A stretch of 64,000 bases of DNA from an uncultured Gemmatimonadales bacterium (GCA_963815515.1 CAWFGP010000003.1:1277513-1341512), one strand, 5' to 3'; shown: positions 3,158 to 14,024, counted from the stretch's first letter. The notes: a model not told the origin generated them from the sequence alone. Translations and numbers: made by a program.

Positions 3158-4231
3158 ATGACGAACGATCCCGTGCGCGTGTACTACGACACCGACGCCG
3201 ACCGAAGCCGCCTTGCCGGCCGCACCTTCGCCATCATCGGCTACGGCAGCCAGGGGCACGCCCACGCCCTCAACCTCCGCGACAGCGGCGCCAAGGTCAT
3301 CGTCGGCCTCCGGAAGGGGGGCGGCTCGTGGGACAAGGCCGAGGCCGCGGGACTCGACGTCCGGACGGTCGCCGAGGCGGCGGCCGCGGCCGACGTCATC
3401 ATGATGCTCACGCCCGATCAGGACGGCCGGGCCATCTACGAGGGCGGCGTGGCTCAGGGGCTCAAGCCGGGCAAGACCCTGATGTTCGCCCACGGGTTCA
3501 ACATCCATTACGGCGAGATCGCGCCGCCGGCGGGCGTGGACGTGTCGATGGTGGCGCCGAAGTCGCCCGGACACCTGGTCCGGAGCGAATTCGAGGGCGG
3601 CCGGGGCGTGCCCGGGCTCGTGGCGGTGCACCAGGACGCGAGCGGCCAGGCCCTGGCCAACGCCCTGGCATATGCCTCGGGCATCGGGTGTACCCGCGCG
3701 GGCGTCATCGAGACGACCTTCCGCGAAGAGACCGAGACCGACCTGTTCGGCGAGCAGGCGGTGCTCTGTGGCGGGGTCACGGCCCTGGTGAAGGCGGGCT
3801 TCGAGACCCTGACCGCCGCCGGCTACCGGCCCGAGATGGCGTACTTCGAGTGCCTGCACGAGCTCAAGCTGATCGTCGACCTGATGTACCGGGGCGGGAT
3901 GCAGTTCATGCGCTACTCGATCAGCGACACGGCCGAGTACGGCGACTACACCCGGGGGCCGCGGGTCATCACCGACGAGACCCGCGCGGAGATGAAGCGG
4001 ATCCTCGACGAGATCCAGAACGGGTCGTTCGCCCGGGAGTGGCTGGCGGAGAACCGGAACGGCCGGCCGAACTTCGAGCGGATGCGCCAGGCCGATCGGG
4101 ACCACCAGATCGAGCGCGTCGGAGCCGAGCTCCGGGCCATGATGCCCTGGTCCGAGGAGGGGAAGGCCGCCCAGCGGGCCGCCGGGGAGCCCAAGGAGCC
4201 GGCCGCACGGAAGGCCGCGACCGTCTCGTGA
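3158..4231 (+). CDS. ilvC: ketol-acid reductoisomerase
   Basis: [36 protein letters not shown] (Rossmann motif). The 357 aa length fits a class I KARI. Confidence 0.95.
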
Positions 4232-5649
4232 CGGCACCCCGCACCCTGTTCGACAAGGTCTGGGAGGCACACGTCGTCGAGGACCCGGGCGGCCCGCCAG
4301 GCGGCCCGGCGCTGCTGTACGTGGACCTCCACCTGGTCCACGAGGTCACCTCGCCCCAGGCCTTCGAGGGGCTCCGGCTGGCGGGCAGGGGCGTCCGGCG
4401 GCCGGAGCTCACGGTCGCGACCGTCGACCACAACGTTCCCACCGGCGACCGGCGGCTCCCGATCGCCGATCAGGTCTCTGCCCGCCAGGTCGCCGCCCTG
4501 GGGCGGAACGCCCGGGAGTTCGGGGTGGAGCTCTTCGACCTCGACAGTCCCGAGCAGGGCATCGTGCACGTGATCGGGCCCGAGCTGGGCCTCACCCAGC
4601 CCGGGATGGTCATCGTCTGCGGGGACTCCCATACCTCCACCCACGGCGCGTTCGGGGCTCTGGCCTTCGGCATCGGCACGAGCGAGGTCGAGCACGTCCT
4701 GGCCACACAGTGCATCGTCCAGTCCCGGCCCCGGACCATGGAAGTCCGCTTCTCCGGCCTCCCGGCCGCCGGAGTGACCGCGAAGGACCTGGTGCTGGCG
4801 CTGATCCGCCGCATCGGAACCGCCGGCGCCACCGGGCACGTCATCGAGTACACCGGCGAGGCCATCCGGGCGCTCTCCATGGAAGGCCGGATGACGGTCT
4901 GCAACATGTCCATCGAGGCCGGCGCCCGGGCCGGCATGGTGGCCCCCGATGCCATCACGACGGCGTACCTGCGGGGGCGTCCGCGGGCGCCCACGGGGGC
5001 GACTTGGGACCGTCTCCGTTCCGAATGGGAGTCGCTCCATAGCGATCCCGGCGCCGCCTTCGACGCCACGATCGAGATCGACGCCGCCAGGTTGGGCCCC
5101 CAGGTCACCTGGGGGACGAGCCCCGGGATGACGGCTGAGATCACCGAGCGCGTGCCCGATCCGGCCGACCAATCGTCCGACGCCGACCGCGAGTCCTACG
5201 CTCGCGCGCTCGAGTACATGGGCCTCGTTCCGGGCACACCGCTCGAAGGTCTCAAGGTCGATCGCGTGTTCCTGGGGTCGTGTACCAACGCCAGAATTGA
5301 GGACCTTCGCGAGGCTGCCAAAGTGGCACACGGTAGAAAAGTCGCGGGCGGCGTGCGCGCGATGGTCGTGCCCGGCTCCCAGCTGGTGAAGGCGCAGGCC
5401 GAGCGCGAGGGACTGGACCGGATCTTCACCGACGCCGGATTCGAGTGGCGCAATCCGGGCTGTTCGATGTGCCTCGGGATGAACGACGATATCCTGGGAC
5501 CGGGCGAGCGCTGCGCGTCGACATCGAACCGCAATTTCGAAGGACGGCAGGGGAGGGGAGGGCGCACGCACCTCGTCAGCCCGGTTATGGCGGTCGCGGC
5601 GGCGGTCGAAGGGTGTCTGGTGGACGTTCGAAGCTATATGCGGGGCTAA
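4228..5649 (+). CDS. leuC: 3-isopropylmalate dehydratase large subunit
   Basis: GTG 4228 overlaps the ilvC stop (GTGA). Motifs seen: [35 protein letters not shown] (aconitase-family Fe-S ligands). Confidence 0.93.
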
Positions 5650-5806
5650 AAGCCTAGATATGCATGGGAAGTATGGTGGTATACGTGGTGATGTAATGCT
5701 TTACTTGATGAATGTACCACCAACGTTGACAACTAATTGCTGATTTCACTTGAAGTAATGTAGCACGTTATCATATCCGAAAGTCAGAATATTTATCCAG
5801 GATCGT
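5650..5806. other. anomalous AT-rich (about 38% GC by hand count) intercistronic spacer between leuC and leuD
   Basis: 60 G+C in 157 nt by my count, against visibly GC-rich flanks. Imperfect direct repeat ACTTGATGAATGTA (5703-5716) / ACTTGAAGTAATGTA (5748-5762). Inverted repeat TGGTGGTA (5674-5681) / TACCACCA (5715-5722). TTGACA at 5726-5731 and TATCAT at 5769-5774. Confidence 0.8.
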
Positions 5807-6421
5807 ATGCAACCGTTCAAAAAGCACTCCGGACGCGCCGTTTCGCTGCCTAGAGCCAACGTCGACACCGATCAGATCATTCCGAAGCAGTTCCTGAAGC
5901 GAATCGAGCGGACCGGCTTCGGACCGTCGCTGTTCTTCGACTGGCGCTACCTGGCGGACGGTTCGCCCAACCCGGATTTCGAGCTCAATCGGCCCGGAGC
6001 CGAGGGCGCTTCGATTCTGATTGCCGGGTCCAACTTCGGTTGCGGCAGCTCGCGCGAGCATGCACCGTGGGCGCTGGCAGAGTACGGCTTCCGGGCTATT
6101 GTCGCCCCATCCTTCGCCGATATCTTCTTCGGCAACTGCTGCCAAAATGGCTTGCTGCCCGTGGTTTTGCAAGAGCCCCAGGTCCAGGAATTGTTCCGGC
6201 GGACGGCGGCGGCCGGTGGGGGCTATGACCTCACTATCGACCTGGTGGAGCGAACCGTGCGTGACGGACGGGGCTTTCAGGCTGGGTTCATCATGGACGA
6301 GTATCGGCGGGAGATGCTGCTCCAGGGGCTGGACGAGATCGGCAAGACGCTGCGGAACGAGACGGCCATCGCGGCGTTCGAGCGCCGGCGCGGTGCCATC
6401 GCCGGCGGGGCGCCCGCATGA
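5807..6421 (+). CDS. leuD: 3-isopropylmalate dehydratase small subunit
   Basis: [50 protein letters not shown]. Confidence 0.94.
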
Positions 6422-7494
6422 CACGCTATACCATCGCGGTGCTGCCCGGCGATGGCATTGGCCCCGAGGTGACGGCCGAGGCCCTCCGGGTCCTGCAGGC
6501 AGCCGCCGAGCTCTTCGGTTTCGGCCTGGACACGGCGGAGTACGCCGTCGGCGCGGCCGGGGTGGCCGAGGCCGATGACTCGCTGCCGGCGCGCACTGCG
6601 GACGCGGTGGTCCAGGCCGACGCGGTACTGCTCGGGGCGGTCGGCCACCCGTCTCTTGCCGCGGCCGAAGGCCGCCGGCGGCCCGAGGCGGGTCTCCTGG
6701 CCCTGAGGAAGGTCCTTGGTGCGTATGCCAACCTGCGGCCCGCCACCGTGCACCCCGCCCTGCGCCATGCCTCCCCGCTCCGGCCCGAGCGGCTGGAAGG
6801 GGTGGACCTCCTGATCGTGCGGGAGCTGCTGGGCGGGCTGTATTACGGCCAGCCCAGGTCACTCGAGCGCGAGACCGCGGTCAACACCATGCGGTACTCC
6901 GTGGCCGAAATCGAGCGGGTGGCACGGGTGGCGTTCGAGGCAGCGAGGGGCCGGCGGCGGCTGGTCACGTCGGTGGACAAGGCCAACGTCCTGGAGGTCT
7001 CCCAGCTCTGGCGGGAGACGGTGACCCGTGTCGGGCTGGACTACCCGGAGGTGCGGCTCGAGCACCTCTACGTCGATTACGCTGCCATGCGCCTGGTGTC
7101 CCACCCCGCCGCCATCGATGTGCTGCTCGCCGAAAACCTCTTCGGTGACATCCTGAGCGACGAAGCGGCGGTGCTTACGGGCTCGCTGGGGCTGCTTCCC
7201 TCGGCCTCCATCGGCGACGGGCCGGGGCTGTTCGAGCCGGTGCACGGTTCGGCCCCGGACATCGCTGGCCAGGGCATCGCCAACCCGCTCGGCGCCATCG
7301 CGTCGGTGGCCATGCTGCTCCGCTACGGGCTCGATCAGCGCGAGGCAGCCGATCGGGTCGATCTGGCGGTGGCCGAGGTCCTGACGGCCGGGGCGAGGAC
7401 CCCCGATATTGCCGGCCGCGGGGAAGCCACTGTGGGCACCCGGGAAATGGGCGAACGAGTGGCGGCCATGGTCCTCGGAGCCGGGGTGAGCTAA
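6418..7494 (+). CDS. leuB: 3-isopropylmalate dehydrogenase
   Basis: ATG overlaps the leuD stop. Motifs [13 protein letters not shown] and [12 protein letters not shown] (isopropylmalate/isocitrate dehydrogenase signature). Confidence 0.94.
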
Positions 7495-13599: not shown

Positions 13600-14024
13600 G
13601 CATTTCTTGCATAATCGGCCAAAATGTCAGCGCAAGAATGCGAGAATCGCGCAGAAAGGCTGTCAAGTCGAGATGAGAAGTGCATAATGTGCGTTGATTG
13701 TGAGACACCTGGGGTCATGGAAGACCGGGTCCGCAAGCAGCCTGCGGCGGGCGGCGGGCGGCGGGTGACTTCCCGCCGCCGGGGTTAGCCTATACTGTCC
13801 GAATCGACCGTCCGAACTCGCCCGTCGCTCCCGGAGGTCCGCTGCCCCTGCTCGTCTGTTCGTCTTGTCGCGGCCCGCTGCCCGACGGCAGCACCCATTG
13901 CCCGCGCTGCGGGCCGGGCAGTCTGGCGCTGCTCGGGCCCGATCACGCGCCGGCCGTAGACCGGCCGCCGGAGCCGGACCGGAGCCACACCCTCGCCCGC
14001 GCCCTTGGCCGGCAGTACCGGGTC

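Follow-up and report, generated by a model that had tools for sequence, protein, structure and literature searches.

Among the closest described parallels to the locus reported here is the E. coli ilvGMEDA operon, which has internal promoters. A second is the ARG box, an 18-bp palindrome (TnTGAATwwwwATTCAnA) that usually occurs in pairs 2-3 bp apart. A third comes from the Actinobacteria, where the IclR-type leucine regulators NdgR, LtbR and AreB have 15-bp imperfect palindromic operators (PMC4340878). The DNA considered here, the junction between leuC and leuD in an uncultured Gemmatimonadales bacterium, shares some features with each of these systems and lacks others.

The window, a stretch of 64,000 nucleotides, begins within leuA, its first and partial gene, and carries a seven-gene operon in the order leuA-ilvB-ilvN-ilvC-leuC-leuD-leuB, beyond which the genes lie on the opposite strand (Table 1). 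NCBIfam identified ilvB, ilvC, leuC, leuD and leuB; ilvN is an ilvN-sized ORF between ilvB and ilvC that was named by size and position, with no family assignment. The original prediction, made from the sequence of the window, described an AT-rich spacer splitting leuC from leuD in an operon whose remaining junctions are tight. Recomputation confirmed the size of 157 bp and a GC content of 38%, and every other junction either overlaps or spans at most 14 nt. In 100-bp windows, GC content drops to 34-40% across the spacer versus 65-78% in the flanks. The genome mean is 69.7% for a genome of 4.64 Mb, and the spacer is by far the largest stretch below 48% GC within the window. Spacer positions outside the conserved blocks described below are also only ~46% GC, versus 70% for the genome; for comparison, the leuA-gltB promoter region is 61% GC.

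Table 1. Features of the leuC-leuD region and related sites. Positions are those of the window unless a contig is named; A1 is the alignment of crown-group spacers.
Feature	Position	Strand	Remarks
leuA/ilvB junction			TAATG overlap
ilvB/ilvN junction			ATGA overlap
ilvN/ilvC junction			14 nt
ilvC/leuC junction			GTGA overlap
leuC, 3-isopropylmalate dehydratase large subunit	4228..5649	+	NCBIfam TIGR00170, 745 bits; stop TAA 5647-5649
AT-rich intercistronic spacer leuC-leuD	5650..5806	+	157 bp, non-coding; 38% GC; single-copy; kept clade-wide
B1, TATGCA	5659..5664	+	A1 columns 26-31, 1.3-2.1 bits per column
27-codon ATG ORF, not a gene	5660..5743	+	start codon and frame unconserved
8-bp inverted repeat TGGTGGTA/TACCACCA, genome-specific	5674..5722	+	arms 5674-5681 and 5715-5722; pairing not kept in relatives
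B2, TATnC	5680..5684	+	A1 columns 48-52; 21 bp 3' of B1, same orientation
B3, ACTTnA	5698..5703	+	A1 columns 66-71; GCTTTA in focal genome
B4, GTAA	5714..5717	+	A1 columns 83-86; GTAC in focal genome
B5, TTAc	5737..5740	+	A1 columns 108-111; TTGC in focal genome
B6, 7-1-7 palindromic consensus tTTACTT-a-AAGTAAa	5745..5759	.	A1 columns 115-131; centre 5752
B7, TATCAc	5761..5766	.	A1 columns 132-137; TAGCAC in focal genome
B8, G[C/A]ATATTTATCCA	5787..5799	+	A1 columns 158-170; best-conserved non-coding block
-10-like hexamer in B8, [A/C]ATwwT	5788-5793		
Shine-Dalgarno-like AGGA, then conserved CGT before leuD ATG	5799..5806	+	A1 columns 170-177
leuD, 3-isopropylmalate dehydratase small subunit	5807..6421	+	NCBIfam TIGR00171, 250 bits
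leuD/leuB junction			ATGA overlap
leuB, final operon gene	6418..7494	+	NCBIfam TIGR00169; ATGA overlap with leuD
TGCATAAT	G000 C3:1276562-1276575 (L114:1170-1183)		-10 region of gltB promoter, divergent from leuA
TGCATAAT	13608-13615 and 13681-13688		
TGCATAAT	G000 C2:290863-290890		in ARG-box-like palindrome before argG
TGCATAAT	G000 C1:372702-372709		

The spacer had been interpreted as a foreign-looking insertion. It is extra, compositionally aberrant and structured DNA in a tight operon, as that interpretation held, but it is neither foreign nor recent. A BLAST search of the whole genome found the 157 bp once, and nhmmer, run with a profile built from 27 homologous spacers as well as with three sub-blocks, matched only the locus itself. 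Both gene ends were located in 22 genomes of the same genus, all of which have an AT-rich spacer of 77-160 bp at this junction; in two genomes of another family in the same order, the leuC-leuD gap is 10-11 bp. In a comparison set of 83 distinct LeuC/LeuD loci, with a tree built from LeuC+LeuD, the spacer-bearing lineages form one clade (45 rows, SH-aLRT 99), a genus-level group of uncultured soil Gemmatimonadales. All 45 rows have a spacer, of 77-205 bp; 41 of these are AT-rich, three carry an added REP-type hairpin and one is GC-rich. Most Gemmatimonadales loci outside the clade have junctions of -4 to 39 bp, and the others have unrelated GC-rich spacers or heptamer arrays. The element thus has a single, ancient origin and has been retained in every sampled lineage of the clade, and the simplest history would be a single acquisition by the ancestor of the clade, after which the spacer was inherited vertically and never lost.

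These data bear directly on the proposal that the spacer is a recent foreign or mobile insertion, such as a MITE, an IS remnant or a phage att scar, or else an assembly artefact. Such an origin would be in keeping with AT-rich DNA in a GC-rich genome and with the short direct and inverted repeats of the focal spacer. However, the spacer is single-copy, neither terminal inverted repeats nor a target duplication were found at its ends, no plasmid or phage similarity was detected, and independent assemblies from 45 species all have a spacer at this site. The single copy, the lack of plasmid or phage matches and the same-site presence throughout the clade together show that the spacer is not recent or mobile. 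A foreign, mobile or artefactual source is therefore scarcely credible and can be considered already refuted, with a miniature mobile element conceivable solely as a remote origin.

Other Gemmatimonadales carry different material at this junction. In L062, L069 and L083 it is filled by (GTAAGRR)n...(YYCTTAC)n inverted heptamer arrays with a GC-rich centre, in L068 by (TCAGATT)n arrays, and in L016, L020 and L050 by REP-type hairpins (GTCATCCCGAG...CTCGGGATGAC). Since both heptamer arrays and REP hairpins occur there, the leuC-leuD junction is a hotspot for hairpin repeats. The focal spacer has the same insertion site as these fillers and shares the short words GTAA/TTAC with them, but it is single-copy, lacks a repeat array (no heptamer arrays were found in it) and a conserved hairpin, and is conserved block by block across the clade, whereas the fillers come and go. 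Within blocks B4-B6, the words GTAA/TTAC and TTACTT/AAGTAA resemble heptamer units, a hint of a repeat-type origin that does not prove it. The spacer may have begun as a hairpin- or heptamer-type insertion that was later exapted.

Conservation within the spacer was assessed in alignment A1, which comprises 27 distinct crown-group spacers, and blocks were defined by per-column information. Spacer length among these 27 is 155-160 bp with a single exception, the full range being 148-160 bp, and gaps in the alignment are only single-base. Eight blocks, B1-B8, were defined in this way (Table 1). The ATG inside B1 is not conserved, being replaced in some relatives by TATACA or TATTCA, while the T and C of B2 are invariant or nearly so. 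The TATnCA-type words, found in B1, in B2 and as TATCCA in B8, all lie on the sense strand. B6 is the most persistent block in the clade, and B7 supplies the right-hand arm of another palindromic consensus, GTrAT-nn-ATyAC (B6/B7). The geometry relative to leuD is rigid: in crown and basal lineages alike, B6 starts at -60/-61 and B8 lies at -21/-22 from the leuD ATG. The basal lineages, which have spacers of 101-109 bp, keep B6 and have a B8-like GCATAA word at -21/-22. The presence of B6 and of this word at the same distances from leuD indicates that the 3' module predates the crown group. In one subclade, ~31-33 bp including B8 have been deleted and B6 is retained directly upstream of the ribosome-binding site, so that B8, judged from these sequences, is dispensable there. 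Autocorrelation gave weak peaks at 10-12, 22-23, 34-36 and 45 nt. An origin from tandem 22-bp repeats or iterons was considered and rejected, because these peaks stem from the shared conserved words and are not independent evidence.

Evidence that the blocks are maintained by selection comes from comparing them with the remainder of the spacer. The 43 block columns are 69-84% identical across all divergence bins, whereas the other spacer columns fall to ~31% identity, against a random expectation of 25%. The non-block columns diverge even faster than leuD third codon positions, which are 55-80% identical; between sequences as close as 96% in LeuD, identity is already down to 49% in the non-block columns versus 80% at third codon positions. 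This contrast indicates that the background is saturated and that the blocks are under purifying selection. The spacer is thus, on the evidence of these alignments, a real, old and clade-specific conserved non-coding element within a biosynthetic operon. The original prediction had set against itself the case of relatives with spacers of similar length and composition. Such spacers do occur in the relatives, but conserved blocks exist within them.

The selection data weigh on the third of the principal readings, that the spacer is a functionless relic: an ancient insertion, at a junction prone to take up hairpin or heptamer repeats, that became fixed in the clade ancestor and whose sole present role would be as filler bearing the ribosome-binding site of leuD. 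The unrelated fillers that other Gemmatimonadales have at this position, and the likeness of the B4-B6 words to heptamers, are what would be expected of such a relic. Neutral DNA, however, would not keep 43 columns ~70% identical while the rest drifts to ~31%, nor would it be expected to hold its length constant to within 3 bp across 27 species or to maintain 33-49% GC in a 70% GC genome. It has also survived in 45 of 45 lineages, although sister clades manage with a junction of 0-15 bp. We regard a functionless relic as distinctly unlikely.

The individual sequence features that first drew attention to the spacer are mostly specific to the focal genome. The direct repeats are present (TTTACTTGA/TTCACTTGA, 45 bp apart, TGATGTAATG/TGAAGTAATG and AATGTACCAC/AATGTAGCAC), as are the 8-bp inverted repeat and the 27-codon ORF; the repeats, the hairpin and the ORF lack conservation among relatives. 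As a coding sequence, the small ORF was rejected: 7 of the 27 relatives lack its ATG, and 1-nt indels and early stops interrupt its frame. A leader-peptide attenuator inside the spacer was likewise rejected, the ORF being unconserved and without a Leu run, and no terminator was found in the spacer on either strand. The inverted repeat TGGTGGTA/TACCACCA does not behave as a conserved helix, with 46.3% of cells paired across 27 relatives versus 46.1% in shuffled columns.

The same lack of conserved pairing was observed for the other candidate helices. Paired cells amount to 55.6% versus 56.5% in shuffled columns for the B6 hairpin, and to 57.8% versus 58.2% for the B6/B7 hairpin, with no covariation. 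A long-range pairing between TATGC at the 5' end of the spacer and GCATA in B8 showed apparent compensation in one sequence, but there was no column covariation and the RNAalifold result was null. RNAalifold returned zero consensus pairs both for the whole spacer (27 sequences) and for the 3' module, taken as the final 66 nt in 38 sequences. Relative to shuffles, the focal spacer has a fold z-score of +0.07 on the plus strand and -1.2 on the minus strand. A cmscan of positions 5300-6200 against Rfam at E<=10 gave only two chance matches, both outside the spacer. The original prediction had allowed for a small RNA or a regulatory leader. Such a structured RNA could be a small RNA gene in its own right or a cis-regulatory leader of leuD-leuB resembling a riboswitch or an attenuator. 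The focal minimum free energy fold does hold a 10-bp stem on TGGTGGTA/TACCACCA, in that one genome, and many relatives have short palindromes. However, with no Rfam match, a fold energy no better than that of shuffles, zero consensus pairs in two alignments, three helices without covariation and no terminator, a structured RNA is very improbable and has already been largely refuted.

A replication or segregation site embedded in the operon, whether an oriC or datA cluster of DnaA boxes, a dif site or a parS site, was also weighed. The DnaA box, TTATnCACA, has a core similar to TATnCA, B1 fits this box at 7-8 of nine positions in several relatives, and the words are spaced near multiples of 10.5 bp. 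Nevertheless, a search of the focal spacer allowing up to one mismatch found no DnaA box, the terminal CA of the motif is unconserved, dnaA lies on another contig (C5) and there is no turn in GC skew at the locus. These observations make such a site extremely improbable. Consensuses for sigma-54, sigma-32, ECF, parS, dif, IHF, TyrR, TrpR, Fur and CodY were compared by eye, and none is conserved across the alignment.

The original suggestion that the spacer is regulatory is probably right, and of the options raised (an internal promoter or operator, a small RNA, a mobile-element remnant or a regulatory leader), an internal promoter or operator appears to fit the fixed-position sequence blocks best. 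We therefore tentatively favour, at a little under an even chance, a DNA-level protein-binding module that would act as an operator, or as an (activator-dependent) internal promoter, for leuD-leuB. Such a module would be a ~155-bp AT-rich platform bearing ~eight short putative protein-recognition blocks at fixed spacing, comprising the TATnCA words (B1, B2 and B8), the 7-1-7 palindrome of B6, the B6/B7 palindrome and the -10-like block 21 nt 5' of leuD. Fixed block spacing over 140 bp, free sequence between the blocks and AT-richness together read as the footprint of promoter or operator DNA, and palindromic sequence that is conserved without covariation has the look typical of sites for dimeric DNA-binding proteins. 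From this pattern we infer that proteins would bind the blocks and that the output would be the initiation or the blockage of transcription of leuD-leuB. A regulator at the spacer would set the expression of leuD and leuB apart from that of the upstream genes. Given that a separate, conserved leader-peptide attenuator already stands at the 5' end of the operon, governing the whole leuA-ilvBNC-leuCDB transcript, the spacer would be a second, independent control point.

Evidence as to whether the module is a promoter in the strict sense is mixed. The genus uses sigma-70-type promoters, for example TTGACA-N17/18-TAGCCT at leuA. In B8, the AT dinucleotide of the -10-like hexamer is invariant in 38 sequences and the T six positions on is mostly conserved. 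At the -7 position of this candidate -10, T is confined to the crown group, and the basal lineages have C or A. No conserved -35 was found on either strand at 16-19 bp from the hexamer, and the columns 17-19 bp 5' of the candidate -10 carry less than 0.6 bit. Two hits of a promoter-consensus scan in the focal genome fall in unconserved columns. The TTGACA (5726) and TATCAT (5769) hexamers of the original prediction are present, but they too lie in unconserved columns. A transcription start predicted from the -10 in B8 would leave a 5' UTR of only ~7 nt. The lack of a conserved -35, the basal hexamers that do not end in T and the very short 5' UTR all disfavour a simple promoter. As a candidate promoter region, the spacer resembles the internal promoters of ilvGMEDA in being a control region inside a long biosynthetic operon with a 5' leader-peptide attenuator, from which distal genes would gain partly independent expression. 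It differs in lacking a conserved -35 and in being a dedicated 155-bp AT-rich insert between subunit genes rather than part of coding DNA.

The main rival to a DNA-level module is a linear element acting at the RNA level, with the blocks serving as single-stranded recognition sites in the polycistronic mRNA. These sites could be recognized by a translational repressor or activator of leuD, by a trans-acting small RNA, or by a processing nuclease, whose action could let leuA-leuC and leuD-leuB have separate stabilities. Several observations are consistent with this mechanism. The TATnCA words all lie on the sense strand, and the word recurs at the end of leuC and at the leuD start codon. The 3' module keeps a fixed distance to the leuD start and merges into the Shine-Dalgarno sequence, and in the deletion subclade B6 lies directly upstream of the Shine-Dalgarno sequence. 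The region is AU-rich and unstructured, as its fold z-score indicates, and would be accessible to ribosomes or nucleases. On the other hand, eight blocks at fixed spacing over 140 nt without structure would be unusual for RNA-protein or RNA-RNA recognition, the covariation-free palindromes of B6 and B7 are typical of dimeric DNA-binding proteins, and searches revealed neither a complementary small RNA nor a second target. We consider an RNA-level linear site a possibility to be taken seriously but, on the whole, doubtful. Rather less likely still is a new, clade-specific nucleoprotein module of ~155 bp, AT-rich and with helically phased words, in which a regulator would assemble inside the operon and control leuD-leuB independently of the 5' attenuator, or, in an alternative version, an RNA operator through which the aconitase-family LeuCD would act on its own message. 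Candidate regulators for the nucleoprotein module are the single Lrp/AsnC protein that the genome encodes, at G000 C3:~645.4-646.1 kb on the minus strand, and one of its two ArgR paralogues.

Searches with nhmmer, block PWM scans of the genome and a pattern scan of 41 genus genomes revealed no credible second site, so that no regulon points to a binding protein. A metagenome scan used a 15-base AT-rich pattern that proved too unspecific, with only 2 of 80 loci being real. Among known operators, the ARG box was compared with B8: AGAATATTTATCCA fits its 14-bp core at 12 of 14 positions, and B1 and B2, 21 bp apart, are like right half-sites. However, B1 and B2 lack left half-sites, the spacer holds no complete second box and B8 of the basal lineages fits poorly. 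Only 21 14-mers in the genome fit TG[A/C]AT-wwww-AT[T/G]CA at 12 or more of 14 positions. Two of these are in non-coding DNA of the leu operon, one being B8 and the other lying upstream of leuA. Among the 20 genus genomes with 420 nt available upstream, 18 keep the leuA-upstream 14-mer, L122 and L133 being the exceptions, and three outgroups lack it. An operator shared between the spacer and leuA was nevertheless rejected, since in the alignment this upstream 14-mer falls on the -10 of the divergent promoter of gltB, a glutamate synthase gene (AATAAT, 17 bp from TTGAC), and is not independent evidence. The 7-mers common to the spacer and the region upstream of leuA are not significant, a REP copy excepted. 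We know of no biological reason for arginine control of leuD. B8 may also resemble the E. coli Lrp SELEX consensus.

The comparison with NdgR-type operators is similarly incomplete. The 7-1-7 palindrome of B6, the association with leuCD and leuB, and sequence conservation without covariation are all shared. However, the NdgR motif, GTCCAC...GGAC, is rich in GC and bears no sequence relation to B6, and the NdgR site lies upstream of leuC beside the regulator gene; no regulator gene adjoins the focal operon and no regulon-wide motif was found.

Some of the ARG-box-like matches have further features in their surroundings. Ten of the 21 14-mers lie in one extremely AT-rich island of several kb (G000 C1:~1,132,000-1,137,000), which may be of foreign origin, or else a contaminating or mis-binned piece. 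In the focal genome, argG is preceded by an operator-like palindrome, TGCATGTTTATGCA, which overlaps TATGCATTATGCAT. The ArgR-family genes are at C2:300415-300597 and C2:1037082-1037273, one of them ~10 kb from argG. The octamer TGCATAAT occurs only five times in 4.6 Mb (Table 1). Its occurrence near nitrogen and amino-acid genes suggests that it could be the site of a shared regulator or a special -10 context.

The attenuator upstream of leuA (G000 C3:1276607-1276893, equivalent to L114:1215-1501 and to about -906 to -620 of the window) is of the classical leader-peptide type and is conserved in ~20 members of the genus. Its sigma-70-type promoter, CCCTTGACA-N17/18-TAGCCT, precedes a 33-codon leader-peptide ORF (MRISLALLVVLLSLLLTVLIGEQGVRGVPIRAT) rich in Leu, Val and Ile, after which an antiterminator (GGTCCGCGGCG) competes with a terminator (GGCGCCGCGGACC-loop-GGTCCGCGGCGC-TTTT) that ends in a T-run. 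No Rfam match to the attenuator was found. In L119 (G005), the leader-peptide ATG lies only 6 nt past the -10 (TAGCCT-CTAAAC-ATG), a spacing that implies a leaderless mRNA for the leader peptide, as read from the sequence.

To our knowledge, gene regulation in the Gemmatimonadota, a major soil phylum, is almost unexplored, and the leuC-leuD spacer provides a clean and well-footprinted test case. If the spacer is inert, it would serve as a caution that block-wise conservation alone can mislead. If instead it is a nucleoprotein module or an RNA operator for LeuCD, it would be a mode of leucine regulation that has not been described. Should it prove to be an internal promoter or operator, it would show how a seven-gene branched-chain amino-acid super-operon is subdivided, and blocks B1-B8 would offer a handle for fishing out the regulator.
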